DNA of 53,269 nucleotides from Coriobacteriia bacterium (GTDB lineage Bacteria > Actinomycetota > Coriobacteriia > Anaerosomatales > JAGXFU01), in assembly GCA_041739935.1 (NCBI GenBank), contig JBGSMX010000007.1, forward strand, positions 1 through 53,269, read 5' to 3'. Positions within the stretch are counted from its first letter, which is position 1. Each line of letters begins with the position of its first letter. Below are positions 5,411 through 47,919 of this stretch, in pieces. The notes below the pieces were generated by a model, which made no database searches, was not told where the DNA came from, and saw nothing but the letters and a program-made list of their open reading frames with translations. Both the position numbers and the translations under genes were made by a program.

Positions 5411-5451
5411 AATCGGCCATACGCTCAGGCGACGGTAGTCCGGGAGGAATC

Positions 5452-6609: not shown

Positions 6610-6811
6610 GGATGTCGCCTACCATCAGTTATACAGAGCCGTTCGTCATCGCGCTGTATACTGAAGGCCCTGTGGGTCCGATAGTGAATGTGTTGGGAGC
6701 GACACACGGGGCGAGGCGAAAGCCCTTCGCGTTGCACGACCGGGGCAACAATTCGTGCGGCACGGGACTTGCTTCGTGAGCGTGGGATCAAGTGAGTAGC
6801 GACGACCCTCA

Positions 6812-7549
6812 TTGGGGGATGCATCTGTGAGTGAAGTCTGGAGCAAGGCCGACCTGCATATCCACAGCAATCACAGTGACGGTCTGGCGCGCATCCCGGA
6901 GATCATGGATTACGTCGAGGAGAAGACCGACCTCAAGATCATCGCGATCACGGATCACAACACCATCGAGGGCGCGCTTTTCGCCAAGTCCCTTGAGGAC
7001 CTCTACAACTTCGAGGTCGTTGTCGGCGAAGAGGTCTCGTCCAAGTCGGGCCACGTCATCGGCCTGTTTCTCGACAGCCCGATTCCTGCCGGCCTTTCGG
7101 TTGCCGAGACCATCGCACGCATCAACGAGCAGGGTGGGGTCGCAATAATTCCTCATCCCTTCTCCAATCAGGGCGTGTTCGGTCCGTTCGGTGTCAGCAC
7201 CTTCGGAACCGCACTCAATGACCTGGCTTTTCACGCGCTCGAGGTCTACAACTCGATGCCATTCCTGGTCTGGGCCAACCGGGTTGCCGCCAAGGTTTTC
7301 GCCGGCGGTCAAGGTATCGCCGCGACGGGTGGATCGGACGCGCATGTCTTGCGCGGCATCGGCAAGGGATACACCGTGTTTCGCGGTACCAGTGCCGAGG
7401 ATCTGCGCGCGAGCCTCGCTCGGCTTGAGACGCGTGCCGAGGCAACCGGTCGCGGAGGCCTGAACCTCATGTTGCGCTATTTCGTTCACTTCCCGCAGAT
7501 TCGCAGGCAGCAGTCGCTCAACTGGGATCGCTGCAAGTCGACCCGATAG
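6812..7549 (+). CDS. PHP-domain metal-dependent phosphoesterase (TrpH/RNase AM-like)
   Basis: 245 aa. The N-terminal ADLHIHSNHSDG...AITDHNT motif and later HP/GGSDAH histidine clusters are typical of the PHP family. Confidence 0.8.
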   Translation: MGDASVSEVWSKADLHIHSNHSDGLARIPEIMDYVEEKTDLKIIAITDHNTIEGALFAKSLEDLYNFEVVVGEEVSSKSGHVIGLFLDSPIPAGLSVAETIARINEQGGVAIIPHPFSNQGVFGPFGVSTFGTALNDLAFHALEVYNSMPFLVWANRVAAKVFAGGQGIAATGGSDAHVLRGIGKGYTVFRGTSAEDLRASLARLETRAEATGRGGLNLMLRYFVHFPQIRRQQSLNWDRCKSTR

Positions 7550-8808: not shown

Positions 8809-8872
8809 CCGGCGTGTTTCTCCCGTCTCGCCTAATGGGATAAGAATACCTGTATGCAGCGCATCTGACACG

Positions 8873-8901
8873 TTGACGAGAAATACCCCTAGGGGTATAC
8901 T
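8873..8901 (+). promoter_or_regulatory. Sigma-70-type promoter of trxA with an embedded CsoR-family palindromic operator
   Basis: TTGACG (8873..8878), a 17-nt spacer, then TATACT (8896..8901). The perfect 16-bp palindrome ATACCCCTAGGGGTAT (8883..8898) fills the spacer and overlaps the -10. Confidence 0.7.
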
Positions 8902-8952
8902 GTTCCACGAGTCAGATAACACTCGTATTCGTATGTGACGGGAGAATGACCA

Positions 8953-9526: not shown

Positions 9527-9919
9527 GTGGACTACGCGTACAAGCGCGTTGGCACCAGGGATTTCAGCGAGACAATCGAAGCCGTGGAGCGCTCTGTGCG
9601 CGACCACGGCTTCGTCATTGAGCAGTTTCACGACATCAGTGCGCGGCTCGAGGCGAAGGGTTTCCCGATCAGGCAACTGGTGATCTTCGAGATCGGGCCG
9701 GCTCAGGAGAGCACCGACGACATGCTCCGGCTGCTCATGCCTTGCAGGATCAATGTCTACGAAGAAGGCGACGAAGTCGTGGTCGCAGCGTTGCGGCCCA
9801 CCCTGTTCAAGGCCGTCTTTCCCGAGCACGAGCTCGATGCGCTTGCGCAGAAGATCGAAGCGGACGTGGTTCGGGTCGTTGACGATTCCGTCGCGGAGCC
9901 CGGTTCGCGCGCTATCTGA
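9527..9919 (+). CDS. DUF302 domain protein
   Basis: 130 aa with a GTG start after GAAGGAGAG. The pattern ...GFVIEQFHDIS...LMPCRINVYEEGDEVVVAALRP matches the DUF302 signature. Confidence 0.75.
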   Translation: MDYAYKRVGTRDFSETIEAVERSVRDHGFVIEQFHDISARLEAKGFPIRQLVIFEIGPAQESTDDMLRLLMPCRINVYEEGDEVVVAALRPTLFKAVFPEHELDALAQKIEADVVRVVDDSVAEPGSRAI

Positions 9920-10499
9920 CGCAGTCCGAGTACTTGAGGAAGACGAGGATGGCCTCGTCGATGAGCTCGTCGCGACTCTGGCCCGCCTCCTCGATCAGGC
10001 ATCCCTTCATGGAATGGCCGAGGACTGCGAGTCCAACATCGCCGATCGCGGCGGTGGCACGAGACAGTTCGTTTAGCACCAACTCACATTCCGTGCCGTC
10101 CTCGAGAAGACGCTGAATATGCCGGATCTCGTCTTCGAGGGAGTGCAGTCTCGTGATCATCTGCATGGTATCTCCCGGCGAGATGCTCTTGGGGTCGGGG
10201 GTCGAAGCTGACAGACTTCGGTACCGAATGAACACCTCGAACGCGTCCTGGATCAGTTCATCGCGATCCTCGTGCGACCCGGTGGCGAGGCACGTCTTCA
10301 TCGAGTAGCCGATGATATGCATTCCGACCTGCGTAAGCGCGGACTTCGCGGCGAGAATCTGGGTGAGGACCGCCTGGCAGTCTTTCCGGGACTCGATCAT
10401 CGTTTGCAGTCCGCGCACCTGACCTTCGAGGCGCTTGAGACGGTTTATTATTCGGCGTCGCTCGGATTCGACCGTGATTTGGTCTGTCGTTTCGGGCAT
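9912..10499 (-). CDS. Tandem (fused double-domain) CsoR/RcnR/CstR-family metal- or thiol-sensing transcriptional repressor
   Basis: Two DUF156-type repeats sit in one 195-aa chain: IINRLKRLEGQVRGLQTMIESRKDC...GYSMKTC and ITRLHSLEDEIRHIQRLLEDGTEC...GHSMKGC. ATG 10499 follows AAGGAG; the GTG at 10514 in the ORF track would include that RBS. Confidence 0.85.
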   Translation of the reverse strand: MPETTDQITVESERRRIINRLKRLEGQVRGLQTMIESRKDCQAVLTQILAAKSALTQVGMHIIGYSMKTCLATGSHEDRDELIQDAFEVFIRYRSLSASTPDPKSISPGDTMQMITRLHSLEDEIRHIQRLLEDGTECELVLNELSRATAAIGDVGLAVLGHSMKGCLIEEAGQSRDELIDEAILVFLKYSDCVR

Positions 10500-10547
10500 C
10501 GTATCTCCTTGCACGCTATGCGCTAGAATTGGTCGTCACGACATACG

Positions 10548-10576
10548 AATATACCCCCTGGGGGTATGTTCCGCAA
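10548..10576 (-). promoter_or_regulatory. Sigma-70-type promoter of the tandem CsoR-family gene with an embedded palindromic operator (autoregulation)
   Basis: Minus strand reads TTGCGG (10576..10571), a 17-nt spacer, then TATATT (10553..10548). The operator ATACCCCCTGGGGGTAT (10551..10567) lies in the spacer and overlaps the -10. This is the same geometry as at trxA and ccdA. Confidence 0.65.
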
Positions 10577-11535: not shown

Positions 11536-12499
11536 GCACCGCGCGCATCCCGAGGCGTGGAAGGGCTATGCGCTCGCAACGATGGCGGCGGTGTTCTGGG
11601 CCACCGGCGGACTGGTCGCGAAGTGGCTGTTCACGCCGCTCGACGCAGCGAGCGCTCAGTGGCCCCTGCCTCCGCTGGGCATCGAGGCGGCGCCGGCGGT
11701 TCTTGCTGGTGCGCGCGCCTTGAGCGCAGCTGTGCTCTTGCTGGTATACGTGGGGATCTTCCGACGGGATGAGCTGCGCATCCGTACTCGTGACATTCCC
11801 TTTCTCGCCTTCTTCGGGATAGTGGGACTCGCCGGATTGCATGTTTCCTACTTCTTTGCGATTGCTAACGCCAACGTTGCGACGGCAGTGCTCCTCGAGT
11901 ATCTAGCGCCGGTCATCGTCCTCGTGTTCTCGGTGGGCTTTCTCGGGGAGCGCTTCACGTGGGCGCTACCGGTGGGAGTGGCGCTGTCCGTGACGGGCTG
12001 TGCTCTCGTTGTGGGCGCGTTTGGCTCGTCGGGACTGGACGTCTCGCCTGCCGGTATTGCCTGGGGCCTCGCCGCCGCAGGGTTCTTTGCCCTCTATCAA
12101 CTCATGGGCAGATGGGCTGCGCCCCGCTTCTCCCCGTGGACCTTGCTGACCTATGGCCTACTTGCCGCGTCGGTGTTCTGGATCGTGTTCCTGGGCGGGC
12201 TCGTTTCAGTCATGCGGCTCGTTTCAACCGTCGGCGGTCTGGCAGCCGTTATCTACGTCGCCGTGATGTCGACCATCATCCCGTTTGCCGCCTCGCTCAA
12301 GGCTTTGCACTATATCGATGCAACGAAGGCTGTCGTCACCTCGACCCTGGAGCCGGTCATCGCGGGTATTCTCGCCTGGTTTCTGCTTGCAGAGTCCTTC
12401 AGTTCCTTGCAGATTCTTGGTGGTGGGCTCGTACTGGCCGCGATCGCGATCGTTCAGCGCTCTGAGAGGCAGGTTCCCAGCTTGCCGCCGGCCCTCTGA
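11519..12499 (+). CDS. EamA/DMT-family transporter
   Basis: ATG 11519 overlaps the CDF stop. There are ten predicted TM helices in two EamA-like repeats (AVFWATGGLVAKW..., ALYQLMGRW...). Confidence 0.75.
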   Translation: MPDSPRHRAHPEAWKGYALATMAAVFWATGGLVAKWLFTPLDAASAQWPLPPLGIEAAPAVLAGARALSAAVLLLVYVGIFRRDELRIRTRDIPFLAFFGIVGLAGLHVSYFFAIANANVATAVLLEYLAPVIVLVFSVGFLGERFTWALPVGVALSVTGCALVVGAFGSSGLDVSPAGIAWGLAAAGFFALYQLMGRWAAPRFSPWTLLTYGLLAASVFWIVFLGGLVSVMRLVSTVGGLAAVIYVAVMSTIIPFAASLKALHYIDATKAVVTSTLEPVIAGILAWFLLAESFSSLQILGGGLVLAAIAIVQRSERQVPSLPPAL

Positions 12500-12545
12500 G
12501 CTTCGGGCCTACACACAACCTCCACGACAGAACCGCCGTTCAAAG

Positions 12546-12561
12546 TGGTATATAAATTGCT
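12546..12561 (+). promoter_or_regulatory. Ambiguous promoter upstream of rpoN: a -24/-12-spaced motif TGGTATATAAATTGCT that also reads as an extended -10 (TGgTATATA)
   Basis: The GG (12547-8) to GC (12559-60) spacing equals that of the sigma-54 consensus TGGCAC-N5-TTGC. The same bases contain TGnTATATA, a sigma-70 extended -10. The motif lies 30-60 nt upstream of the rpoN start candidates. Confidence 0.35.
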
Positions 12562-12565
12562 AGGC

Positions 12566-12583
12566 GCGCGCCCGCGGGCGCGC
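12566..12583. repeat. Perfect 18-bp GC palindrome in the rpoN leader
   Basis: GCGCGCCCGCGGGCGCGC is self-complementary. It lies between the candidate promoter and the rpoN start. Confidence 0.9.
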
Positions 12584-12591
12584 TGATCGAG

Positions 12592-14019
12592 ATGTTGTTC
12601 GGCGGTCGGAAGGCATCAGGCGTGGAACTCGTACAACGCACTGAACTCAGACAGAAGATCACGTTGTCGCCCCAGGTCTATCAGGGGCTGAATATCCTCG
12701 CCATGCCCATCGCCGAGCTCGAGCTGCTCGTCGAAGCCGAGCTGCTCGAGAACCCGGTGCTCGAAGTCGAGGAACCCGAGGTCGACGATACGGCAGACGA
12801 GTTTGATGAACGCTCCGAATCTGAAGAGGACGACAGGGCGTGGGACGAGTGGCTCGACATGTACGACGAGCTCGAATCAACTGACACTTCCGGGCCGCGC
12901 GACCCGAATGAAGAGACGGCCAATACCGAGGAGTTCGTAGGCGGTGCTCTGACCTTCGATGACTACCTCAACGAGCAAATCGGACTTCTCGACATCTCCC
13001 CCGAGTGCGCACGAGCTGCCCGCGCAATCGTTGGCTCACTGGACAAGGATGGCTTCTTCGTGGGCCGGTGCTCTGAGGTTGCTGCGGTGGCTGACGTGAG
13101 CTCCGAGATCGCCGAGGAGGCCCTGAGGGTTGTACAGCAATTGGATCCGCCTGGTGTCGGGGCGCGCAATCTGGGCGAGGCGCTCCGGTTGCAGATGGAC
13201 TACCTGGGTTTGGAGGAGCCCCTGCTCGACGTGATCGTCTCGGATTACCTCGATGATGTTGCAGCGAACCACTACCGCAAGATCTCGAGGGCCCTGCGCA
13301 CCGATGAAGACGAGGTTCGCCGCATCGTCGGAATCCTGCGCACCTTGAATCCGCGACCGGCAGGCGCCTTCTCCCCGGGGCCGTCGCCGGGCTACATCGT
13401 CCCGGACGTCACGCTGCGCAGGTTCGACGACGAGTGGCTTATCACCCCAAACAGCGAGTCCGTACCGACCTTGCGGGTCAGCCCGCGCTATCGCTCGATG
13501 CTGCGTTCGGGCTCCTCGGCAGATGACGATACGCGCCGCTATCTGAAAGACAAGATTCGCTCGGCAGAAAGCTTCATTCGCAACGTGGATCGCCGCAAAG
13601 ACACGGTCAGTCGGATAACGGAGATCATCCTCGACGTGCAGGGTGAGTTCTTCGAGGACGGCAAGGGGCTGCTCAGGCCGCTGAGGCTTGAAGATGTGGC
13701 CGTCGAGCTGGGGGTCCACCTTTCGACAGTCAGCCGGGGGGTGACCGGAAAGTACATGGCCACACCGTACGGGCTGTTCGAGCTCAAGCACTTTTTCTCG
13801 GGCGGATATCGTACGCGCACCGGCACCGATGTGGCATCGACGAGTATCAAGCAGCGGCTGCGAGAAATCGTGAAGGACGAGAATCCGGGGAAGCCATATT
13901 CGGATCAGAAGCTCGCCGAGATGCTTTCGGACGAGGGTGTCACGGTGGCCCGCCGGACGGTGGCGAAGTACCGTGAGGAGCTCGGCATCGAGCCCTCGTG
14001 GGCACGGAGGCGCCGATGA
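12592..14019 (+). CDS. rpoN: RNA polymerase sigma-54 factor
   Basis: 475 aa. Region I is Leu/Gln-rich (LRQKITLSPQVYQGLNILAMP). Region II is acidic (EPEVDDTADEFDERSESEEDD). An HTH (LEDVAVELGVHLSTVSRGV) and the RpoN box ARRTVAKYRE are present. An alternative GTG start lies at 12622, after GGAAGG. Confidence 0.93.
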   Translation: MLFGGRKASGVELVQRTELRQKITLSPQVYQGLNILAMPIAELELLVEAELLENPVLEVEEPEVDDTADEFDERSESEEDDRAWDEWLDMYDELESTDTSGPRDPNEETANTEEFVGGALTFDDYLNEQIGLLDISPECARAARAIVGSLDKDGFFVGRCSEVAAVADVSSEIAEEALRVVQQLDPPGVGARNLGEALRLQMDYLGLEEPLLDVIVSDYLDDVAANHYRKISRALRTDEDEVRRIVGILRTLNPRPAGAFSPGPSPGYIVPDVTLRRFDDEWLITPNSESVPTLRVSPRYRSMLRSGSSADDDTRRYLKDKIRSAESFIRNVDRRKDTVSRITEIILDVQGEFFEDGKGLLRPLRLEDVAVELGVHLSTVSRGVTGKYMATPYGLFELKHFFSGGYRTRTGTDVASTSIKQRLREIVKDENPGKPYSDQKLAEMLSDEGVTVARRTVAKYREELGIEPSWARRRR

Positions 14020-15544
14020 CCGAGACGGCCGGGACGGACGCGAAAGCGAACGGCAGCTCTGACGACGCCGGTCGTGCGCGCACGTACCGCGCAGTTTCCA
14101 TAATCGTCGGAATGCTGGTCACGGTCACTGTGTTGCAGCTCTACACGAACACGCTGGACCAAAGCGTGGGCCTGCACCTGCTGTACCGGCGGCTGTACTA
14201 CGTGCCGATCCTCTACGCCGCCTTCGTGTTCGGGAAGAAGGGGGGAGCACTCGCAGCATTTGCGGCCTCCGTCCCGTTCGCGTTGCATGCGCAGATGTCG
14301 CTTGGCGGCCTGTTTGGGGTGCACGTAGACAACTCTTTCGAGATCGTCATGTACTTCGTAGTCGGAGTGCTTTTCGGTGCACTGAGGGACATGGAGGAGC
14401 GCAAGACACGCGATCTGCGACTCGTTTCCGTCCGGCTCGAGGACGCCTATCGCAAGCTCGAGGAACGAGCGATCCAGCTAATAAACATCCAGGACTACAC
14501 ACAATCGATTCTGCGTTCAATCACATCCGGCGTGCTCACGGTGGGTCCCGACGGTTCGATTACGACGATCAACCCGGCTGCCGAACGTATGCTCGGCGTC
14601 TCCGAGTACGACATCGTCCCCAAGCCGATAGGGTCGATCTTCCGCGATGACGGTGGGCTCAGCGCCGACGTTGATAAGGTGCTCTCGGGCAGGCTCCCGC
14701 TCACGCTAAGGGAGATCACAGTCGTGACGCGAGGGGGTCGAACGGTACACGTCCAGGCGTCGACATCGCGAATGCGAGCGGTTGGCGGCAGGATCCTTGG
14801 AGCTGTTGTCACCGTGGAGGACATCTCGGAGATCAAGACCCTCACCGCGCAGCTGATCCGTGCGGATCGCCTCGCGGCTATGGGCGAACTCACGGCCGGA
14901 GTCGCGCACGAGGTTCGCAATCCGCTGGGCGTCATACGGGCCTCCGTGCAACTGCTCGAAGACGCCAACTGCGACCGCAAGCGAATCCACGAGGCAGCAG
15001 CGGTGATCAAGCAAGAGATTGACCGCCTCGACAGGGTGATCAAGGCGCTTCTCGATTTCGGGCGCCCCAGTAAGCCGACGCTGCTGCAGACGGACATCGA
15101 GCAGGTATTGCAGGACGTGCTGCTGTTTACCGGTCGTTTTGCCAAGCAGGCTGATGTGAAGATCGAGTACGCTTTGGCGGGCGACCTGCCCAGGGTGACT
15201 GCGGACCCGGACCAGCTCAAGCAGGTGTTCCTGAATCTGGTGACGAACGCTGTACAGGCCATGGAGGGTCTGGGAGGAAGAATCTCGGTCGAGACCGGAT
15301 CTGACGGGGATTTCGTCCATATTTCTTTTGCGGACACGGGACCGGGCATCCCTGCATCCGACTTGGGTAAGGTCTTCGATCCCTTCTTCTCCACACGCGA
15401 CGACGGGACCGGGCTCGGGCTCACGATCGTGCATAGGATCATCGACGAGCACGATGGGCATATCGAAGTAGGAAGCGGGCCAGAGGGGACGGTCTTTCGG
15501 GTCTCGCTGCCGATCGCTGTTGCAAACGGCGCGAAGGGGAGTCA

Positions 15545-15548
<4 letters not shown>
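14016..15548 (+). CDS. Membrane sensor histidine kinase (membrane-embedded N-domain, PAS, HisKA, HATPase; NtrB/AtoS-like)
   Basis: ATG 14016 forms an ATGA overlap with the rpoN stop. The H-box AHEVRNPLGVI, N box NLVTNAVQA and G boxes DTGPGI / GTGLGL are present. A PAS block (ILRSITSGVLTVGPDGSITTINPAAERMLG) is also seen. Confidence 0.9.
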
Positions 15549-16894
<1,346 letters not shown>

Positions 16895-16927
16895 TTTTCG
16901 AACGAAACGGCGCAAGACCCTCGTGCT

Positions 16928-16943
16928 TGGCACATCGCTTGCA
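16928..16943 (+). promoter_or_regulatory. Consensus sigma-54 (-24/-12) promoter
   Basis: TGGCACATCGCTTGCA equals TGGCAC-N5-TTGCA with exact spacing. It starts 34 nt after the activator stop and ends 39 nt before the GTG 16982 (RBS AAGGAG at ~16970). Confidence 0.8.
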
Positions 16944-16981
16944 CTGTCCGAGGCGTTGGGATCGGCAGTCAAGGAGCGGTC

Positions 16982-17344
16982 GTGTCGCGCGTTTCGGTCA
17001 GGCATATGGTAACAGCGCTGGGCAGCGGTTTCGTTGCCGGCGTGCTCATGCTGGCTGTTCTTGCGCTGCTCAACGGCGGAATCGGATTCGGCTCGTGTAC
17101 CGCGATGACGGGCCTCGGGTGGATCGTACCGCTTGTTGCGGGACTGATCATCGGCGGGGTCGCGCTTGTGCTTCTCGACACTTCGCAGTCGAATGCCGAC
17201 TCCTCGGCGGACACCCTTCGCGCTTCTACATGCGCGTCGTGCGGTAGCCCCATCATCTCAGAGTGGCGCATGTGTCCGCATTGCGGCGCATTGCTCGAGT
17301 GCGACATGGCCGTCTCCACGGCCACCAGCATTCCTGAGCTCTAG
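16982..17344 (+). CDS. Small membrane protein with a C-terminal zinc ribbon
   Basis: 120 aa. Two hydrophobic helices are followed by CASCGSPIISEWRMCPHCG (CxxC-N10-CxxC). Confidence 0.6.
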   Translation: MSRVSVRHMVTALGSGFVAGVLMLAVLALLNGGIGFGSCTAMTGLGWIVPLVAGLIIGGVALVLLDTSQSNADSSADTLRASTCASCGSPIISEWRMCPHCGALLECDMAVSTATSIPEL

Positions 17345-17356
17345 ATCAGCGAGAGG

Positions 17357-18649
17357 ATGCTCGTGGAGATCCTTCTTCCTATGCTAGGTCTGGGCCTCGT
17401 CACCAGCTTCCACTGTGTCGCCATGTGCGGCGCGCTGGTCGTCACCTATGCAGTCAAGGACGGCCCGACTGGCTCCGTGTGGCATCGGTTGACGCCACAC
17501 CTGACGTACCAATCGGCGAAGATAGCGAGCTACGTCGTCGTGGGATTGGTGCTGGGCGCCATCGGTGCGGCGTTCGATCTGGCCGGGATTCGCGGATGGG
17601 TGATGCTCGCGGCGGGTCTGTTCATGATCTTGCTGGGAATCAACATGACCGGGCATTTCCCGTTGCTTCGCAAGCTGACGCTCAAGCCACCCAAGGCGCT
17701 CGTGCGCGCGCTGTCAACGAACCGAAAGAAGGCGCGCGCTCAGGCACTCGAAGGGCGAACATCTCTCACAACGCCACTGGTGTTCGGTCTGCTCACAGGT
17801 CTCATGCCGTGTGGGCCCCTCCAGGCAGCCCAACTTACGGCCGCAGGTACCGGCAGCGCGGCGACCGGGGCGATTGCGATGCTTGGCTTTGGCCTGGGTA
17901 CCGCGCCGCTCATGATCGCGTTCGGAGTGGGCTCCGGCTACCTGGGTGAGGTCTTCAAACGGCGGATGAACTGGGTCGCGGCGGCCGTCATCATCATCCT
18001 GGGTCTCGTCCTGTTCAACCGCGGGTCGATGCTCGTGGGCTCACCCGTGACGTTCCAGTCAGCGCGGCAGATAGTCACGAGCAGTGTTGCACCGGCAGCC
18101 GAGCCTGCCGAGTTTCGCACCGCGGCCGATGGCGTGGCGGAGATCGATCTGGTAATCGAGAACACCAGGTTCGTTCCCGAGACTGTCAACATCCCCGCCG
18201 ACACGCCGGTGCGAATCATCGTGGATAGGCGCGAGGACAACACGTGTTCGGACCAGCTGGCCATTCCGCAGGCCGGAGTGCTTGCGGATCTCGCGCCATT
18301 CTCTACCACAGCTGTGGACGTCCCGCCGCTCAGCGAGGGAACGTACACCCTCACATGCGGAATGGGGATGATGTCGGGGCGCGTCATCGCCGGGGCCTCG
18401 ACAGGCGGCGTTGCGGGTAGTCCGCTGCTCGGCCTGGGAATCGCTGCCGTGATTCTGGGTGCAGCGGGTTATGCGCTCACAAGGCGGGAGAGTCCGCGCA
18501 GTCGGGAGGTATGCCCCGCTCCCGCTGGTTCGCCCGCGGCCGGTACGGGTAGGACGATTCTTGGGTTCAGCCCTGCCGAGCTGTTGGTTGTGTGCGGCGT
18601 TATCGCGGCGGCAGTGATCGCGGGATTGGCGCTCGGTGGAGTTTTCTGA
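17357..18649 (+). CDS. DsbD_2/UreH-like polytopic membrane protein fused to a cupredoxin_1-like domain and C-terminal TM helices
   Basis: 430 aa. The N-terminal SFHCVAMCG motif and a later LMPCGP are typical of the DsbD_2 (COG2836) family. Residues ~260-345 (AEIDLVIENTRFVPETVNIPADTPVRIIVDRRED...YTLTCGMGMMSGRVI) match the cupredoxin-like domain common next to copA. Confidence 0.7.
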   Translation: MLVEILLPMLGLGLVTSFHCVAMCGALVVTYAVKDGPTGSVWHRLTPHLTYQSAKIASYVVVGLVLGAIGAAFDLAGIRGWVMLAAGLFMILLGINMTGHFPLLRKLTLKPPKALVRALSTNRKKARAQALEGRTSLTTPLVFGLLTGLMPCGPLQAAQLTAAGTGSAATGAIAMLGFGLGTAPLMIAFGVGSGYLGEVFKRRMNWVAAAVIIILGLVLFNRGSMLVGSPVTFQSARQIVTSSVAPAAEPAEFRTAADGVAEIDLVIENTRFVPETVNIPADTPVRIIVDRREDNTCSDQLAIPQAGVLADLAPFSTTAVDVPPLSEGTYTLTCGMGMMSGRVIAGASTGGVAGSPLLGLGIAAVILGAAGYALTRRESPRSREVCPAPAGSPAAGTGRTILGFSPAELLVVCGVIAAAVIAGLALGGVF

Positions 18650-18665
18650 CAGATGGCGGGTTAAC

Positions 18666-18681
18666 TGGCACATCGTTCGCA
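18666..18681 (+). promoter_or_regulatory. Sigma-54 (-24/-12) promoter, near-identical to the one at 16928
   Basis: TGGCACATCGTTCGCA matches 14 of 16 positions of the 16928 motif, with conserved GG/GC spacing. It starts 17 nt after the preceding stop and ends 38 nt before the copZ ATG (RBS GGAGGAGAGG). Confidence 0.7.
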
Positions 18682-18718
18682 TTTAGCGGATTGAAGCACA
18701 CGGAGGAGAGGCAAGAGC

Positions 18719-18931
18719 ATGGCTGTTGAGGAGAGAGTACTCAAGACGACCGGGATGCACTGCCGTTCGTGCTCGATGTTGGTGGATATGACCGTGGGCG
18801 ATCTCGAGGGTGTTCAAAGCGTCGAGACCGACTACGTCACCGGCGACACCAAGCTGAAGTTCGACCCTGATGCGGTCTCAGTCGGCGAGATCATCAACGC
18901 GATTCGTTCGGCCGGATACGACGCCGAGTAG
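18719..18931 (+). CDS. copZ: Heavy-metal-associated (HMA) copper chaperone
   Basis: 70 aa with GMHCRSC (MxCxxC) near the N-terminus and ferredoxin-like HMA length. Confidence 0.85.
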   Translation: MAVEERVLKTTGMHCRSCSMLVDMTVGDLEGVQSVETDYVTGDTKLKFDPDAVSVGEIINAIRSAGYDAE

Positions 18932-18978
18932 CGCCACCGGTACAGTGCAGTCAAATCCTGCGAAAGGAACCCGACACA

Positions 18979-19503
18979 ATGAGTGAGACGACGACATACA
19001 TGACCTCGAACCGCACGAAGTACATTCTGGTGGCGGTAATCGTGGTACTCGCGTTCTTCGCCGCCTATGGCATCGCCTCGGGCCGCTCGTCGAGCGCGGC
19101 AAACGCATCCGCTCCCGCCACAACCGCCGGCACGCCTGTGGCATGCGATCCCGCTGCTGCCGCCGGAACGTCGGAGTGTGGCGGTTCGTGCTGTGGCACG
19201 GGCGGCGAGGCGGTCGAGAACTCGGGTTCGGCGGTGGTCGAAGGCGACGTGCAAAGGATCTCGATCGATGTCTCGGCCGGTTACTTCGATCCGAGCATCA
19301 TCGTGGTGAAGGCCGGCGTACCGGTGGAAATCACATTTGGCGAGGGCACCGGATGCATGGCCGAGGTCATGTTCAAGGACTTCGCGGTATTCGAGGACCT
19401 CACCGAAGGCGGTGCTGTCGTCAGTCTGCCCGCGCTCGAGCCCGGCGAGTACGAGTTCTCGTGCGGCATGGAGATGGTATTCGGGACTGTCGTCGCCCAA
19501 TAG
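18979..19503 (+). CDS. Membrane-anchored Cys-rich cupredoxin_1-like protein
   Basis: 174 aa. An N-terminal TM is followed by the Cys cluster ACDPAAAAGTSECGGSCCGTGG. The cupredoxin-like block (ISIDVSAGYFDPSIIVVKAGVPVEITF...YEFSCGMEMVFGTVV) is paralogous to the C-domain of 17357..18649. Confidence 0.65.
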   Translation: MSETTTYMTSNRTKYILVAVIVVLAFFAAYGIASGRSSSAANASAPATTAGTPVACDPAAAAGTSECGGSCCGTGGEAVENSGSAVVEGDVQRISIDVSAGYFDPSIIVVKAGVPVEITFGEGTGCMAEVMFKDFAVFEDLTEGGAVVSLPALEPGEYEFSCGMEMVFGTVVAQ

Positions 19504-19524
19504 CGCGCACGTGCGCCCGAACCC

Positions 19525-19555
19525 GGGGGTCCGTGCCGCAAGCGGCCGGGCCCCC
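19525..19555 (+). other. Strong GC hairpin in the 109-nt spacer upstream of copA (possible attenuator or partial terminator)
   Basis: GGGGGTCCG(T)GCCGC-AA-GCGGCCGGGCCCCC is followed by TTCACATAGGTTTCTCG. It is preceded by the 12-bp perfect palindrome GCGCACGTGCGC (19505..19516). Confidence 0.4.
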
Positions 19556-19612
19556 TTCACATAGGTTTCTCGTCCGCCCCACGACAGGCGGGCGTAGATT
19601 GGGAGTGAAATC

Positions 19613-22246
19613 ATGAACGACTCCACGACTGCGGCGAGAACCGCAGACGACGAATCGATTGCAGCCGAATCCGAGGCCGTGTTCGCTGTCACCGGAATGA
19701 CGTGTGCCTCGTGCTCCGCCATCATCGAGAAGACCCTCGGTAAGACAGAGGGGGTCGACACGGCCAACGTGAACCTCGCTGCCGAGAAGCTCACCGTGCG
19801 CTACGACCCGGCGCTGATCGACATAGACGCGATAGTAGGCGCGGTCGAAGGGGTCGGGTACGGCGCTTCTCCGATGTCTGCAGCGCATCCTGCTGAGATC
19901 AAGGCCGGCCGTATCACCCTGGCCGTCACAGGTATGACGTGCGCTTCGTGCTCTGCGGTCGTGGAAAAGACACTGGGTAGGCTCACCGGGGTGTCCTCGG
20001 CAGCTGTCAATCTCGCCAACGAGACGGCGACGGTCGAATTCGACCCAACGCTGCTCGGGCCCGACGAGCTGATTGCGGCAGTCAAGAACGCCGGCTACCA
20101 GGCAAGCGTGCTACCCGGCGTCTCCGGCTCGGTCGCGGCGGATTCGGGAGACGCGCAGCGCGAGGCGCAGCGTGCGTACTACAGGCACCAGCGCAACCTA
20201 CTCATCTTTGCTGCGTCGCTTTCGATCCCGCTGTTTCTGATAGCGATGGTTCCGCCGTTCATGGAACTCGTGCCCATGTGGGTGGCCTCATGGTTCGGCA
20301 TCATGGACGAGGAAGGCGTGATGCAGGTCCACAAGTACCTGATGCTGCTCATGGCCGCGCCGGTTCAGTTCTATGCAGGTGCCCAGTACTACCGTGGTTT
20401 CTGGCATGCGATCAAGCGGCGTACAGGCAACATGGACACGCTGATCGCGATAGGCACGACCGCGGCGTTCGCGTACAGCGTCGCCGCGACGTTCTGGTTG
20501 TTCGACGAGCCCGTGTTCTACGAGACCAGCGCACTGCTCATCACGTTCGTGCTTCTGGGCAAGATGCTCGAGGCGCGAGCGAAGGGGCGCACGGGTGATG
20601 CGATCAAGAAGTTGATGGGTCTGGCCGCCAAGACCGCTCGCGTGGTCAGAGGCGGAGAGAGCATCGACATCCCGGTCGAGCAGGTCGTAGTGGGTGACAT
20701 CGTGGTGGTCCGTCCGGGCGAGAAGGTGCCGGTCGACGGCGTCATTATCGACGGCTCGTCGGCCGTGGACGAATCGATGCTCACGGGCGAATCGATTCCG
20801 GTGGAGAAGAACGCATCAGACACCGTTATCGGCGCGACCATCAACAGACTCGGCAGTTTCCGTTTCCGGGCCACGAAGGTCGGCTCGGATACTGCGCTGG
20901 CTCAGATCATCCGACTCGTTGAGGAAGCGCAGGGTTCGAAGGCGCCGGTCCAGAGGTTCGCGGACCGGATCAGCGCGGTGTTCGTTCCCACAGTCGTCTC
21001 GATCGCCTTCGGCACGTTCCTGTTCTGGTACTTCGCAGGACCGGCGATCTTTGGCGCTGTCCCCGATCCATCGCAGTACGCAACCATTCTGCATCCGATT
21101 CTCGAGGCAGCCGCAGCGAGTGGGTGGTTCGTCGCCGCGCTGCTCGCGGGTACCGCCACCGTTGTGATCGCGTGCCCGTGTGCGCTGGGGCTGGCAACTC
21201 CCACGGCCATCATGGTCGGGACCGGCAAGGGCGCTGAGAACGGCGTCCTCATCAAGAGCGGGGAAGCACTCGAGACCGCTCATGCGATCGACGCGATCGT
21301 TTTCGACAAGACCGGAACCCTCACTCATGGCGAGCCGGTCGTCACCGATGTTGTCGCTCTGAATGGATACGACCCCGATCGAGTCCTGTTGTTGGCCGCC
21401 TCGCTTGAGCAGGGCAGCGAGCATCCGCTCGCAGAGGCTATCGTCAACGGCGCGAAAGAGCGCGGACTCGGCCTTTCGCAGGCGACGGAGTTCCTCGCAG
21501 TCCCCGGGCACGGCGTCGAGGGTACCGTCGAAGGCACCCGCGTGGCGCTTGGCAATCGCAAACTCATGCTCCGCGAAGGCGTGGATCTCAGCGACCGCGA
21601 GGAGCAGATCTCGCGCATGGAGAGCGAGGGCAAGACCGTGATGGTGGTTGCGCTCGACGGCGCTGGCGCGGCCGGGCTGATCGCGGTGGCGGACACCATC
21701 AAGGAGAATTCCGGGGCCGCCGTTGCGCGGCTGTCCCAGATGGGCATCGCGGTCTACATGATCACGGGAGACAACCGGCGCACTGCCGAGGCTGTCGCCC
21801 GGGTTGCGGGTATCCCTACCGACCACGTCTTGGCCGAGGTTCTGCCCGAGCACAAGGCCGAGGAAGTCGCAAAGCTGCAGGCGGGCGGTCTGAAGGTCGG
21901 TATGGTCGGCGATGGCATCAACGACACGCCGGCACTGGCCCAGGCCGATGTGGGTGTTGCCATGGGTACCGGCGCCGATGTTGCCGTCGAGACCGGGGGC
22001 GTCGTTCTCATTCGCGATGATCTGCGCGATGTAGTGGGCGCCATCGAGCTTTCCCGGGCTACGATGCGAAAGATACGGGCGAACTTCTTCTGGGCGCTCG
22101 GCTACAATTCGCTGGGCATTCCTGTCGCCGCGTTAGGTCTTCTGTCCCAGGTCCCGTGGATAGCAGGGGCAGCGATGGCATTCTCGAGCGTGAGTGTGGT
22201 GACCAATTCACTGCTGCTGCGCAGGTTCAGGCCGACCCTACGGTAG
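19613..22246 (+). CDS. copA: Copper-translocating P1B-type ATPase with two N-terminal HMA domains
   Basis: 877 aa. GMTCASC occurs twice. The CPC motif ([11 protein letters not shown]), the DKTGTLT phosphorylation site, and the TGDN and [10 protein letters not shown] motifs are present. Confidence 0.95.
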
Positions 22247-22261
22247 TGGCTGGCAAGAGCC

Positions 22262-22290
22262 TTGCGGTGGGATACCCCAGGGGGTATAGT
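22262..22290 (+). promoter_or_regulatory. Sigma-70-type promoter of ccdA with an embedded CsoR-family operator
   Basis: TTGCGG (22262..22267), a 17-nt spacer, then TATAGT (22285..22290). The operator ATACCCCAGGGGGTAT (22272..22287) lies in the spacer and overlaps the -10. Confidence 0.65.
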
Positions 22291-22292
22291 GT

Positions 22293-22326
22293 GAGACCCC
22301 GGAGCTTGCGGGTTTGCCGGGGTCTC
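22293..22326 (+). other. 10-bp stem hairpin at the predicted 5' end of the ccdA transcript / 3' of copA
   Basis: GAGACCCCGG-N14-CCGGGGTCTC, with no clear T-tract afterwards. Confidence 0.4.
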
Positions 22327-22395
22327 GTGTTGCGAGCGGTTAGAATGGCTGCTACGCGAGGAAGGTGAGTTCACTGGAATCAGGAGGGTCTGCGC

Positions 22396-23121
22396 ATGAG
22401 TGAGTCGATTGGCATCGTCGCGGCGTTTCTTGCCGGCGTCATGTCGTTTCTCTCGCCCTGCGTGATTCCTCTGATTCCGGCTTACCTGTCCTTCATCACC
22501 GGCTTCACGCCCGCTGAGCTTTCTGACAAGAAGCTCGGCATCAAGGCAGTGCTCGTGCCAAGCCTGCTCTTTGTTGCCGGTTTCTCCTTCGTGTTCGTCG
22601 CGCTGGGAGCTTCTGCGTCCGTACTCGGTGGGTTCTTCTCCGAGTATCGCGAGTTGCTCGTTCAGCTCTCCGGGATCCTCGTTTTTGTGCTGGGATTCTT
22701 CATGCTCGGTGTGATCAAGGTGCCGTGGTTGTACGGCGAGGCGAGATTCGAGATGGGCAAGGCCCGCTCGTTCGGGCGCGCGGCGGCGTTCGTCGTAGGG
22801 GCGGCGTTCGCCTTCGGCTGGACGCCGTGCGTCGGCCCTATCCTCGGCTCGATACTCGCTCTGGCGGGGTCGACCGGAAGCGTGGCGCAAGGCGCGCTGC
22901 TGCTGTTGGCCTACTCGCTCGGTCTCGGCGTGCCGTTCATCTTGACAGCACTTCTGTTCGGGAAGCTGCGTACCACGCTGGGCTGGCTCAATCGCCATGC
23001 TCTGATCATTAACCGGGTTGCCGGCGTCTTGCTCATGACGGTCGGCGTGCTGATCTTCTCCGGTCAGCTCGGTCGCCTGGCCGGCTGGCTCACGTCTGTA
23101 CTGCCGTCCATCGAGCTCTAG
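22396..23121 (+). CDS. ccdA: Cytochrome c biogenesis / thiol-disulfide transmembrane electron transporter CcdA (DsbD family)
   Basis: 241 aa, six TM segments. The conserved motifs FLSPCVIPLIPAYL and WTPCVGPILG carry the two essential Cys. Confidence 0.9.
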   Translation: MSESIGIVAAFLAGVMSFLSPCVIPLIPAYLSFITGFTPAELSDKKLGIKAVLVPSLLFVAGFSFVFVALGASASVLGGFFSEYRELLVQLSGILVFVLGFFMLGVIKVPWLYGEARFEMGKARSFGRAAAFVVGAAFAFGWTPCVGPILGSILALAGSTGSVAQGALLLLAYSLGLGVPFILTALLFGKLRTTLGWLNRHALIINRVAGVLLMTVGVLIFSGQLGRLAGWLTSVLPSIEL

Positions 23122-23243
23122 CGACGCGAGAATCACGCGCCCGCTGCGCCCGCGTGTGCGCCGCGCTTTGTGGTCACCCGTGTGCTGCACTACGATAGAG
23201 TCGCGCGGCACCCGGGTCCGCGATCCCTTTCGAAGGGCTGTCG

Positions 23244-26200
23244 ATGGCGCGTGAGACCAGGAGCGATTCGCTCGCATCCAACATGATGGTCCTCACGCTG
23301 ATGCTCGTCACCGTGTCGGTCACGATCATCAGTCTTGCCGCATTGGCCGGAGTCTACGATCTCGCCCGTGATCAGGTTGCAGTGAGTCATCAGGCCGTCC
23401 GCGAGGTCTTCTCCGTCGAGGTTGACAGTCGTCTGGCTGCCTCGACCCGTGTTCTCGATGCCGCATCGGCCATTCTGATCGACCCGAGTGCAGAGGCCGT
23501 GGATCGCAAGGCGCTCGCCCTCCAGTTCGACGCCGGGATCGAGTACATCGATCAGCTCATCGTTGCGAACGAGGATGGGACGACTGTCGCTGCATATCCC
23601 GCGCTCGAGGCTGGAACCACGGTGGCCGACCTGCCGGTCTACAAGGCGGGGGTCACGGACGTTACGAGTTTCTACTACGACGAGGTCGACTCCGACGAGA
23701 GCCTCTGGGTGTGTCGGGCCGTTGAAGGGCCGCTCGGCGAGCAGATAGTCCTGGCGCGCGTTCGCACGACGTTTCTGGATCTGCTCGTGCGTGAGTTTTC
23801 CTCGACGACGGACCGTCGGATCGTATCGATAGTAGATGCCGGGGATCGCGTGCTGTATTCCGGCGCCTCGGACGTGGCGGTGGTCGCTGACAGCATCGAG
23901 TTCTCGCCCGATGACGGAGCCGAGGCGGGCGCGGTCAATGCGCTCACCACGGAGGGCTCGGTCATGTGGGGTCAGTACGCCGGGCTGCGCTCCTATCCGG
24001 GGATCGACTGGCGCCTTCTCGTGATCGAGCCGCGTGCGACCATGGTGGAATCGACGTGGCGCGCCCTGACGCCGGCGGTGATCGCCCTGCTCATGACCGG
24101 TGTGATCTCCTTCAGCCTGGCTGCGCTGTTCGCGCGGCGGTTGGTCGCGCCGCTCCGATCGCTGGAATCTCACGCACTTGAAGCGGTGTCCGGGGCGTAC
24201 GTGCCGCCCATCCGTACCGATCGCCGTGATGAGGTCGGACGCCTTGCCGAGGCGTTCAACGCCCTCGCGCTGAGGCTCAACGCGCTGCAGGACCTCTCGC
24301 AGCTCCTCGCCAGTTCATCGAGCCTCGACCAGGTACTCGACGGTATCCTCTCGGCGATGGGCCATATCGTGGGCACGACGAACATCGCCGTGCTGCTCGT
24401 CGACGACTCGCGCACTCATCTGATTGTGGCCCGAAGCAGGGGCGTGACGGACGCTGACGATCTCGTGATCCCGCTGCGCGGACACAACTGGCTGTCACAG
24501 GCGCTGGAGTCAACGGGCCCCGCGACGTTTTCGGGCATGCGTGAGGACATGTTGCGGGCGCTGCCGGGCATCGCCGGCACCGGTACCGTGTCCGGTCTCG
24601 TCGCGCCTCTCCAGGCGGGCACAGAGCCTCTGGGCATCATCATCGTCATCCAACGAGACGAGCGCCTGTTCTCCCAGGCTGAGATGGAGATGGTGCGCAC
24701 GTTCTCTGCGCAGGCCGCTGTAGCCGTCTACAACTCGCGGCTCTTCGAGATCGAGTCCGCATCGCGTCGCGAGGCCGAAGCTATGCGCACGGTCGCCGAG
24801 GCGCTCGCCAACCCGCTCGATTTGCAGCGTTCGTTCGATACGGTCATGCAGATCACTTTGAGGCTGTTCGCGGTCGCTTCCGCGACGATCGCATTCATGG
24901 ACCGCCCGGCTCTGGGGCTTCCTCCTGCCGAGGACATCATGACCGAGCGTCTGCTGCTCTCGGCATGGAGGGCGGGCTGGGCCACCGGCGACGGCGACCT
25001 CGTGACCCGGGTGTCGCCGGGAGATGACCCCCTGATCGACCGCTACCTTGAGTCCAGACATGCGAGCGAGGCGCTTTTCCTCACGGTAATGCGAGCGGAG
25101 CACCCGTGCGCTGTGGTCTCACTCGAGATAGACAGACCGGGACGTATGTTCACGGCGCACGAGCGCAGCCTGGCGTACGCGCTCGGCAAGCAGCTCGCCC
25201 TTGCACTCGACAATGCGTTTCACTACTCAGAGGCGCGCCTGCGTGCGGCCAACCTCGAGACGATCTTTCGCATCAGTCAGGCGGTGAGCTCCTCACTGCA
25301 GATCAAAGTCGTGCTCAATCGGGTTCTCGATGTGGTACAGAAGATCTTCTCGGCGGACACCGTTTCGCTCATGCAGTTCGACGACGCCACAAAGACCGTC
25401 GAGACAGCGATGGCACGCGGGATCATCTCGACCGAGATGCTGCATTTTACCTGCTTACCGGGCCAGGACGTACCGGGCCGGGTCTTCGAAGCGGGCGAAC
25501 CGATCAAGGTAGACGACCTGTACGCCGTCGAGACTACGCTCGCTCAGATCGCCCTGGGCCAGGGTCTCCACTCGATGCTTGCCGTCCCGCTGCTCGCCCG
25601 CGGTCGCTCGATAGGGGTGCTGACGATCTTCTCGGCGCTGCCCTCGGCTTTCACGAGCGAGGACATGGGTCTGCTCCACACGTTCGCGTCGCAGGCGGCC
25701 CTTGCAATCGATACGGCGGCCCTTTACGGGCGAGAGCATCATGTCGCGAGCGTTCTGCAAAGCAGCATCCTTCCCAAGAGCCTGCCGGAGTATGACGAGA
25801 TCGAGTCCAGTAGCGTCTACCTACCGGCGGGCGAGGAGGTCGAGATCGGCGGGGACTACTTCGACCTTTACAAGGACACCGACGGCAAGATAGTGATGGC
25901 GATCGGTGATGTCTGCGGAAAGGGTGTCGAGGCGGCCACCAAGACCTCGATGATCAAGTACCTCGTCAGGGGTCTGGTTGCAGCGGGTCTCGACCCCGCT
26001 GCCGTTCTGAGCGAGGTCAACCGGGCGGTATCCGAATCGGGTGACACGTCCGACATCGTGACCCTATGGCTTGGCTATCTGGATCTGGAGGCCGGCTTGA
26101 TTCGCTATGCCGATGGGGGCCACCCCCCGGCAGTCATCAGGCGCGCCGAGACCGGACGCACCGAGCTACTCGAGACCACAGGGGCGCTGCTGGGTGCTAT

Positions 26201-47750: not shown

Positions 47751-47799
47751 CGGACCCCTTTTCGTCTTCTTGCAGGACGGAAGGGGGTCCGTTTGCGTT
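47751..47799 (+). terminator. Intrinsic terminator after acs
   Basis: CGGACCCCTT...AAGGGGGTCCG hairpin (with an inner CGTC/GACG stem) followed by TTTGCGTT. Confidence 0.7.
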
Positions 47800-47919
47800 G
47801 GCGTGGGAATCCGTGTCGATGGCACCCGGGCGGACCCCCGGCGAGCCCGTTTCATGCGTGTTCATGGTAGACTGGCGTACGAATCTCACCCCCTTGAATT
47901 GTGCGAAAGGATCACCCGT

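Follow-up and report, generated by a model that had tools for sequence, protein, structure and literature searches.

ZraSR-ZraP of Escherichia coli and Salmonella is a sigma-54-dependent two-component system for metal and envelope stress. Single-activator sigma-54 systems operate in Borrelia (Rrp2-RpoN), Chlamydia (CtcB/CtcC-sigma-54), and Helicobacter and Campylobacter (FlgS/FlgR). Autoregulation of the sigma-54 gene, rpoN, is known from proteobacteria: it is negative for Bradyrhizobium rpoN2, Rhizobium etli rpoN1, and Pseudomonas putida rpoN, and R. etli rpoN2 is dependent on NifA and RpoN1. The locus analyzed here lies in a 53,269-nt stretch of DNA (contig JBGSMX010000007.1, positions 1 to 53,269; hereafter, the window) from a bacterium of the order Anaerosomatales (Coriobacteriia, Actinomycetota). 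It carries rpoN in one operon with genes for a sensor histidine kinase and a bacterial enhancer-binding protein (bEBP), followed by znr, which encodes a zinc-ribbon membrane protein, and copZ, which encodes a metallochaperone-like protein. Comparison with related loci indicated that it probably represents a sigma-54 regulatory module that functions in the Anaerosomatales and is inherited vertically, with the targets and the CsoR-family neighbor proposed below.

According to a 2025 survey, RpoN that functions is in effect missing from Actinomycetota, an absence attributed to high GC content, which was proposed to leave sigma-54 promoters indistinguishable from background (PMC12316311). A sequence-only reading of the window that preceded the present analysis had likewise noted that sigma-54 is reported as absent from most high-GC Gram-positive lineages; the host is a high-GC actinobacterium, and the statement in the survey agrees. 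The paper describing the Anaerosomatales, which include cultured members, does not mention sigma factors (PMC9686372). A search of the literature for sigma-54-dependent copZ yielded nothing beyond one incidental mention.

The window was compared with a set of 21 related loci, of which approximately 20 kb was examined per relative. Gene identities were derived from Pfam domain searches and, for proteins encoded in the window, from NCBIfam models with their own cut-offs.

The rpoN-kinase-activator operon

The operon comprises three genes:

12592..14019, + strand: rpoN, encoding sigma-54, with the Pfam domains Sigma54_AID, CBD, and DBD (PF00309, PF04963, PF04552), all above cut-offs
14016..15548, + strand: sensor histidine kinase gene, with PAS (cytoplasmic), HisKA, and HATPase_c domains and four transmembrane helices (DUF4118-like)
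15545..16894, + strand: activator gene, encoding an NtrC-class bEBP with Response_reg, Sigma54_activat, and HTH_8 domains (PF00072, PF00158, PF25601, PF02954)

RpoN contained region I, the core-binding domain, and a DNA-binding domain with the RpoN box ARRTVAKYR, as expected of the sigma-54 family, and scored 389.8 bits against NCBIfam TIGR02395 (cut-off 277.35). Its start codon is probably GTG 12622 rather than ATG 12592 (475 aa), which would shorten the protein by 10 codons; orthologs of 462-467 aa align from GTG 12622, upstream of which lies the ribosome-binding site (RBS) GGAAGG. The bEBP combined a receiver domain with the phospho-acceptor Asp, an AAA+ domain with Walker A and B motifs and GAFTGA, and a C-terminal Fis-type helix-turn-helix (HTH), the composition of an NtrC-class (group I) bEBP (motifs DDEKN, VLDHRMP, LTKPF, GESGTGKE, EKGAFTGA, and LFLDEIG). 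The sequence-only reading had described translational coupling of the three genes, and both ATGA overlaps were present, between the rpoN stop and the kinase start at 14016-14019 and between the kinase stop and the bEBP start at 15545-15548. The identities that it had given to these regulators, and to the zinc-ribbon protein, DsbD_2-cupredoxin fusion, CopZ, cupredoxin, and CopA encoded downstream, were matched by Pfam domains and motifs.

Every relative had this gene arrangement, as did a distant lineage, L100 (63.5% GC), in which RpoN, kinase, and bEBP were 44, 47, and 57% identical to those of the window, respectively, the operon genes also overlapped, and the neighborhood was different (regions of note in L100, 1750-2764 and 7602-11073). 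No second bEBP or second rpoN was found in any of the 21 loci. When a genome collection was scanned with the bEBP, one close relative was recovered; the other 79 loci encoded bEBPs that were 41-51% identical and came from other phyla, with a weak rpoN match nearby in L059 only and with znr or copZ in none.

Mechanistically, the module is of the standard NtrC-class sigma-54 two-component type. Its closest analog by theme is ZraSR-ZraP, with which it shares a membrane kinase paired with an NtrC-class REC-AAA+-HTH regulator, -24/-12 promoters, a sigma-54 site in front of its own operon, a small envelope-associated main target, and a metal-stress theme. ZraS was the second-best NCBIfam match for the kinase and ZraR the fourth for the activator, with scores far under the cut-offs (212.7 versus 479 and 408 versus 760, respectively). 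Whereas the periplasmic domain of ZraS senses Zn or Pb, the kinase of the module lacks an outer domain and combines four transmembrane helices with a PAS domain in the cytoplasm, an architecture that is also unlike those of CusS and CopS. In the Zra system rpoN lies outside the operon and zraP is the target, whereas here rpoN lies inside, the targets are znr, copZ, and a cupredoxin gene, and the host is actinobacterial. By sequence model, the closest analog is AtoS-AtoC, likewise a PAS-HisKA-HATPase kinase with an NtrC-class regulator, which gave the top NCBIfam scores (362 and 492 bits). These scores, however, were under the equivalog cut-offs of 646 and 714, the N-terminal membrane domain differs, and acetoacetate metabolism, the target of AtoS-AtoC, is unrelated to the targets of the module. 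All four equivalog cut-offs were thus missed, and the pair was assigned as orthologous neither to ZraSR nor to AtoSC. The unusual features of the module are its host phylum, the position of rpoN inside a two-component operon, the -24/-12 element before rpoN, and the CopZ/cupredoxin targets.

Conserved -24/-12 elements

Four classes of -24/-12 element were recognized, listed here with the PHP-domain gene that follows one of them:

16928..16943, + strand: P_znr, sigma-54 promoter-like site TGGCACATCGCTTGCA, an exact match to TGGCAC-N5-TTGCA, 34 nt after the activator stop
18666..18681, + strand: P_copZ, sigma-54 promoter-like site TGGCACATCGTTCGCA, with one mismatch to TGGCAC-N5-TTGCA, 17 nt after the preceding stop
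12546..12561, + strand: P_rpoN, -24/-12 element TGGTATATAAATTGCT, which in most loci doubles as an extended -10 box
6758..6773, + strand: P_php, candidate sigma-54 promoter CGGCACGGGACTTGCT, with GG-N10-GC, 45-100 nt upstream of the PHP start
6812..7549, + strand: gene for a PHP-domain metallohydrolase, likely start GTG 6827; NCBIfam CehA/McbA domain above cut-off, PHP and PHP_C in orthologs

P_znr and P_copZ had the sequence characteristics of sigma-54 promoters, namely GG-N10-GC in an intergenic position, on the coding strand, and upstream of a gene. Both had been proposed by the sequence-only reading, and an RBS and start codon indeed followed approximately 40 nt downstream of each. The two proposals fared differently among the relatives. 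P_znr (consensus TGGCAY-N5-TTGCA) immediately followed the activator stop in all of the 17 loci. P_copZ (consensus TGGCAY-N5-TCGCA) was present in the window, as proposed, and otherwise only in L097, L082, and L091 (4 of 16 loci). Elements before the PHP-domain gene (cGGcAcG-N4-TTGCt) and before rpoN (YGGTAYA-N4-TTGCW) were found in 16/16 and 21/21 loci, respectively. The intergenic flanks of all four classes could not be aligned among loci.

Whether the 16-mer is frequent at random was addressed by counting. P_znr and P_copZ were the only sites in the 53 kb with at most one mismatch to TGGCAC-N5-TTGCA, 0.64 such sites were expected by chance, and at least two occurred in 9 of 100 shuffles. 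The site count alone is therefore not significant, and the case for the promoters rests on the comparison with relatives. Weak counting statistics are what would be expected if the two 16-mers were chance matches in GC-rich DNA and the genes were transcribed from unrecognized housekeeping promoters. This explanation, however, has become scarcely credible in view of the conservation of P_znr in all loci that cover it, the intergenic position of both 16-mers on the correct strand beside rpoN and the bEBP gene, and a matching site in L100. By position, strand, and conservation, P_znr and P_copZ are judged to stand beyond chance. A consensus scan of 12300-23300 for sigma-70 promoters and terminators gave nothing informative, with no sigma-70 consensus found on the + strand.

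A weight matrix built from the four site classes (consensus YGGYAY-N5-TTGCW) was scanned over 365 kb of related DNA. It gave 58 matches at the four positions, a count that is circular because the matrix was trained on those sites, and 3 matches elsewhere, versus 3.6 expected from shuffles. This lack of an excess elsewhere is the non-circular part of the scan. No further match occurred in the window.

In L100, TGGCACACTTCTTGCT was found approximately 100 nt upstream of a znr homolog that is followed by a cupredoxin gene. Since L100 keeps both the operon and a site before znr and cupredoxin, the sigma-54 link to these two genes appears to be old and the core of the system. The promoter-like site and the znr-cupredoxin pair of L100 lie 5 kb upstream of the operon, with genes for a LysR-type regulator, a Rieske protein, and a ferredoxin between them.

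Some further observations concerned the surroundings of P_php. A conserved GCCGATA motif, which may be a housekeeping -10 box, lies approximately 60-110 nt upstream of it. In L084, gene calling merged the aminotransferase and PHP domain into a single fusion of 664 aa, which runs across the position of the -24/-12 element. The PHP gene is preceded at 3384-6609 by genes for a radical SAM protein, a B12-binding radical SAM protein, and a class I/II aminotransferase, a trio that is present in most relatives.

The element in front of rpoN

Because a -24/-12 element is conserved before rpoN, the module is read as autoregulated. P_rpoN is interpreted as a composite site, at which rpoN would be regulated in a positive or negative direction. 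A -24/-12-like element that overlaps or adjoins a housekeeping -10 box is also a feature of autoregulated proteobacterial rpoN genes; unlike in those cases, the element of the module heads an operon that also encodes the activator. Positive autoregulation may run through the bEBP, while negative autoregulation may arise as bound sigma-54 holoenzyme occludes the overlapping -10-like box.

An explanation of P_rpoN as an ordinary housekeeping-sigma promoter with an extended -10 box (TGnTATAnT), which binds no sigma-54 and confers no autoregulation, is unlikely. Its -24 half, TGGTAYAnT, does make a good actinobacterial -10 box in 20 of the 21 loci, and before rpoN of the distant L100 there is only an extended -10 box, TGGTAGAAT, without TTGC at -12. 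Nevertheless, TTGCW was kept at the exact -12 spacing in 21/21 loci in spite of a variable spacer. In L101, moreover, the -24 half (TGGTACGG) has lost its likeness to a -10 box, with a separate TATAAT 10 nt farther upstream, but both GG-N10-GC and TTGCT persist.

A conserved-looking hairpin just downstream of the -12 element was rejected as its stability was no greater than that of shuffled sequence. A non-palindromic motif, ACACACAACCTCCACGACAGAAC (12511-12533), was observed shortly behind the EamA stop, 13 nt before the -24 element; it recurs in at least six relatives (including L083, L086, L094, L097, and L098; weaker in L087, L088, and L095).

Proposed targets, conserved and accessory

Downstream of the activator gene, the following features were identified:

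16982..17344, + strand: znr, zinc-ribbon membrane protein (two transmembrane helices, ribbon at the C terminus); first and conserved target
17357..18649, + strand: DsbD_2-cupredoxin fusion gene; accessory, in the window and L097 only
18719..18931, + strand: copZ-like gene for an HMA metallochaperone (Pfam HMA; motif MHCRSC)
18979..19503, + strand: gene for a membrane-anchored, Cys-rich cupredoxin (Pfam Cupredoxin_1), found in 5 related loci
19525..19555, + strand: GC-rich hairpin between the cupredoxin gene and copA, kept in L097, without a U-tract
19613..22246, + strand: copA, P1B-1 Cu(I) ATPase gene; accessory, in the window and L097 only

The ribbon motif CxxCG-x7-WRxCPxCG was invariant in an alignment of Znr sequences. 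A homolog search with Znr yielded four close relatives only, because the protein diverges too fast. A role of Znr as a co-sensor or feedback partner is speculation. After znr, copZ followed in every locus that reaches far enough, so that znr and copZ, with or without the cupredoxin gene, are predicted to be the conserved sigma-54 targets.

CopA carried the motifs CPC521, YN831, MAFSS855, and DKTGT565, and two HMA domains with MTCASC at 28-34 and 107-113; CPC, YN, MxxSS, and N-terminal MxCxxC HMA domains are the characteristics of a P1B-1 Cu(I) ATPase. Both copA and the DsbD_2-cupredoxin fusion gene occurred at this locus in only 2 of approximately 14 loci, the window and its closest relative, L097 (RpoN 86% identical), and are interpreted from this distribution as accessory genes that were inserted in a znr-copZ operon of greater age. 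Between the cupredoxin gene and copA lies a gap of 109 nt with a very stable predicted fold (-56.6 kcal/mol, z = -3.3). Its main hairpin may terminate or attenuate transcription, or may be a site of processing or stabilization. The gap contained no sigma-54 site and no exact CsoR operator, variant palindromes not having been searched. Because copA lies behind this strong, conserved hairpin, its sigma-54 dependence is uncertain.

According to the sequence-only reading, sigma factor, sensor, activator, promoters, and copper-handling targets formed one contiguous circuit. This holds for the sigma factor, sensor, activator, promoters, and first targets; for copA, which is accessory, the link is uncertain. 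In another respect the circuit is wider than had been claimed, as conserved -24/-12 sites also occur before rpoN and the PHP gene.

A CsoR-family repressor and its operators

Two kilobases upstream of rpoN, the window encodes a CsoR-family repressor, and palindromes of the type TACCC-N4-5-GGGTA occur at three positions, all conserved:

9912..10514, - strand: CsoR-family repressor gene (200 aa), a tandem fusion of two Trns_repr_metal domains
8884..8897, no strand assigned: CsoR-type operator between the ferrochelatase-like gene and trx, at a position conserved in relatives
10552..10566, no strand assigned: CsoR-type operator TACCCCCTGGGGGTA between csoR and the CDF-EamA operon, kept in nearly all loci covering it
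22273..22286, no strand assigned: CsoR-type operator TACCCCAGGGGGTA between copA, which it directly follows, and ccdA; overlaps a TATAGT -10 box
22396..23121, + strand: ccdA/DsbD_TM thiol-disulfide transporter gene, under the CsoR-type operator and not under sigma-54

Orthologs of the repressor were either 98 aa or 192-195 aa long, with a single 98-aa domain in most relatives and the tandem form also in L082, L097, and L101. Judged by eye, the His four residues ahead of the second Cys seems to be missing from both halves of the protein, and the repressor would therefore resemble CstR-like persulfide sensors more than Cu(I)-CsoR. The operator at 22273 recurred as the exact pattern in 9 further loci and as slightly variant palindromes at the same place in three more. 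A candidate third sigma-54 promoter after copA, TGGCAAGAGCCTTGCG at 22251, was rejected, as it is not conserved and the conserved element there is the CsoR-type palindrome.

Together, the three operators are taken to mark out a local CsoR-family regulon around the sigma-54 cassette. In CsoR-controlled copZA operons of Gram-positive bacteria, as here, genes for CopZ and a P1B-1 CopA occur together, and a CsoR-family repressor with TACCC-N-GGGTA operators is present. In contrast, no exact operator precedes copZ or copA in the window, and a -24/-12 promoter precedes copZ instead. Exact matches were confined to 8884, 10552, and 22273, and no exact TACCC-N2-8-GGGTA palindrome was found between 16895 and 19612 in a search that did not cover variants; by exact matches, the arrangement is not that of a CsoR-repressed cop operon. 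With exact operators at trx, csoR/CDF, and ccdA and none before znr, copZ, or copA, two regulatory systems appear to divide the locus. The CsoR operators would control the trx/ferrochelatase-like, csoR/CDF-EamA, and ccdA units, and the sigma-54 module would work beside the CsoR-family repressor, not in its place. The contrast with CsoR control that the sequence-only reading had drawn was consequently overstated, given a CsoR-family repressor close by and three operators, one of them directly after copA.

On the opposite strand at 7576-8922, under the first of these operators, lies a CbiX/ferrochelatase-like gene. A hemE-hemH operon followed by two amine-oxidase-family (HemY-like) genes occupies the end of the window (47770-53126). 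With the ferrochelatase-like gene and the separate hemH, the genome has two genes of the chelatase type, of which one appears to be under regulation by metal or thiol status.

The signal

In an alignment of 17 orthologous kinases, there were four transmembrane helices with the invariant motif RxYYxPxxYAAxxFGxxGG, and the cytoplasmic PAS domain was very well conserved. The membrane part is DUF4118-like, with a faint Pfam match in the L100 ortholog. The kinase is devoid of an outer domain for metal binding, and nothing in it indicates direct copper sensing, which weakens the metal-resistance interpretation that the sequence-only reading had put on the circuit. The case for copper as a possible signal comes from the targets, which would suit stress by copper(I) or by thiols.

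Stress of the thiol, redox, or membrane kind has to be taken seriously as another possible signal. In the fullest form of this alternative, the module answers thiol, redox, or envelope stress and not copper, its CopZ-like, cupredoxin, and DsbD/CcdA-like products serve in the handling of thiol-disulfides and metal cofactors, and copA joined secondarily. The properties of the kinase would suit this explanation, as it lacks a periplasmic metal-binding domain and is best conserved in its cytoplasmic PAS domain. So would the restriction of the conserved targets to znr and copZ, with or without cupredoxin, and a neighborhood rich in thioredoxin, DsbD/CcdA, and an apparently CstR-like repressor. Evidence for copper comes from the products themselves: CopZ bears the Cu(I)-type MxCxxC motif, the Cupredoxin_1 domains with CGMxM motifs suggest copper binding, and copA, when recruited, was inserted exactly into the znr-copZ operon. 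On balance, a module that does not respond to copper is regarded as quite possible, without being the expected outcome.

Extent of the sigma-54 regulon

The apparently small regulon under one two-component, NtrC-type activator resembles the single-activator systems of Borrelia, Chlamydia, Helicobacter, and Campylobacter, the single bEBP of the module being an observation within the examined loci. In those systems rpoN does not share an operon with kinase and regulator and the targets are others, whereas the module has all three genes in one operon.

Most sigma-54 bacteria have several bEBPs, and the DNA examined amounts to 53 kb of one genome and the 20-kb segments of the relatives. Sigma-54 might therefore be an alternative sigma factor of general function that works with several activators at many promoters in the rest of the genome. 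The adjacent two-component system would then be only one of its inputs, and the circuit would not be self-contained. A regulon that reaches beyond the adjacent operon is implied by the conserved site ahead of the PHP gene, which lies 6 kb from rpoN on its upstream side, and different activators would fit with the failure to find an upstream activating sequence (UAS) common to the four promoters. On the other side, none of the four conserved sites is more than 12 kb away from rpoN, the remaining 40 kb or so of the window and the flanks of 20 relatives gave background-level matches only, no locus encoded a second bEBP or rpoN, and rpoN is translationally coupled to the same kinase and bEBP even in the lineage with 44% identical RpoN. 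A general sigma factor thus has a substantial chance of being the correct description, a little short of even. The opposite extreme, in which sigma-54 is a dedicated local regulator, with one sigma-54, one kinase, and one bEBP encoded in a single autoregulated operon and a regulon of three or four promoters within approximately 12 kb for copper/thiol homeostasis, is tentative and, from the loci at hand, rather doubtful.

Inheritance of the cassette

RpoN homologs formed more than 120 clusters at 72-86% identity, several of them named by NCBI as Coriobacteriia or Anaerosomatales bacterium. Homologs with 73-79% identity carried the NCBI names Coriobacteriia, Anaerosomatales, or Coriobacteriaceae bacterium, a homolog with 68% identity was an Actinomycetota bacterium, and one close related locus came from a metagenome-assembled genome (MAG) named "Coriobacteriaceae bacterium". 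In clusters at 50% identity, the next representatives were only 44, 42, and 39% identical, and Fuchsiella (Halanaerobiales, Bacillota) was the only named organism among those looked up. This isolation of the RpoN clade argues against a recent transfer.

The sequence-only reading had considered the architecture possibly transferable. The same chromosomal neighborhood in all relatives indicates instead that the cassette is vertically inherited and not mobile. No integrase, transposase, or other mobility domain was found in the open reading frames scanned, and a plasmid search returned no relatives, its matches being limited to short stretches of conserved domains. GC content was flat along the window (0.60-0.66) and the insertion context was the same in relatives, so that neither composition nor context had the marks of a mobile element. 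The divergence of the cassette genes paralleled that of the flanking genes. A transferable, self-contained metal-resistance cassette acquired horizontally could account for the contiguity of sigma factor, sensor, activator, promoters, and targets, and the lack of close RpoN relatives outside the lineage fits an ancient transfer into its ancestor. Against flanking genes that are the same in all relatives, the flat GC profile, and the parallel divergence, such an acquisition is very improbable, and recent mobility of the cassette is considered already contradicted by these comparisons.

The gene order recurred in the related loci, each as far as the locus reaches, including contigs of up to 1.44 Mb. 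Upstream of the cassette it comprised genes for radical SAM, aminotransferase, PHP, ferrochelatase-like (opposite strand), thioredoxin, DUF302, CsoR (opposite strand), CDF, and EamA proteins; it continued with rpoN, kinase, activator, znr, copZ, the optional cupredoxin gene, ccdA, and a HAMP-GAF-SpoIIE phosphatase gene. Exceptions were L099, without the thioredoxin gene, and L089, L090, and L093, without the CDF gene. Beyond the cassette, the window encoded ordinary chromosomal functions (xseA, acetyl-CoA synthetase, hemE-hemH-hemY, and tRNAs). Three tRNAs were the sole matches in an Rfam scan of the window, which showed no riboswitch or leader near the promoters.

Genes of partner-switching systems flank the locus in conserved synteny (23244-27268 and, on the - strand, 852-3353). 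The downstream flank encodes a 1079-aa HAMP-GAF-GAF-SpoIIE (PP2C) phosphatase and a STAS-HATPase_c_2 fusion, with anti-anti-sigma and anti-sigma kinase domains in one protein, and the upstream flank encodes a MASE3-PAS-GAF-SpoIIE phosphatase.

Discussion

By analogy with well-studied members of the NtrC class, the kinase would receive a signal via its membrane or PAS domain and phosphorylate the receiver Asp of the bEBP. The bEBP would then oligomerize and, by ATP hydrolysis, open sigma-54 holoenzyme pre-bound at the -24/-12 promoters via its GAFTGA loops. P_znr would be the primary conserved target, driving znr and copZ with or without the cupredoxin gene. In the window genome and its closest relative, the operon would have been enlarged by the DsbD_2-cupredoxin fusion and copA. 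P_copZ would be a second, older promoter that re-initiates before copZ-cupredoxin, while copA would be reached only by read-through of the strong hairpin or from another promoter. The fourth conserved site, P_php, would place the PHP-domain hydrolase gene in the regulon.

Several observations weigh against this proposal. A UAS common to the promoters was not found among k-mers of 7-9 nt and inverted repeats in 260 nt upstream of the four classes in all loci, and pairwise comparison of P_znr with P_copZ in the window and L097 gave no common motif. The sole UAS candidate, AGGTCGA-NN-TCGACCT approximately 158 nt upstream of P_znr, was discarded as confounded, since it falls within the codons for a conserved EEVELDL stretch in the bEBP gene. 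Most relatives have no P_copZ, their copZ either abutting znr or lacking such a site, and the hairpin separates copZ-cupredoxin from copA. The outer loops of the kinase are short and variable and were without conserved Cys, His, or Met in the 17 orthologs. To these are added the reading of the rpoN element as an extended -10 box in nearly all loci, the absence of TTGC from its L100 counterpart, and the derivation of the taxonomic assignment of homologs from the names of MAGs.

The interest of the locus appears to lie mainly in a bona fide sigma-54 system within a high-GC actinobacterial order, with the link to copA secondary. An order with 62-64% GC in which rpoN is intact, a cognate activator is present, and -24/-12 promoters are sharply conserved contradicts the current general statement on Actinomycetota, and the occurrence of spurious sites at only the shuffle-expected level in 365 kb speaks against the proposed effect of GC content. 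The locus further adds a sigma-54/two-component route of control over CopZ/cupredoxin-type metal and thiol genes, parallel to a CsoR-family repressor. With rpoN coupled to its own two-component system and its own -24/-12 element, the module offers a compact system for studying the start-up and self-regulation of a sigma-54 circuit, and it is open to experiment because cultured Anaerosomatales exist (PMC9686372). If sigma-54 is indeed a dedicated local regulator in these bacteria, the module would be the first functional sigma-54 system described in Actinomycetota and a natural counter-example to the idea that high GC blocks the discrimination of sigma-54 promoters.

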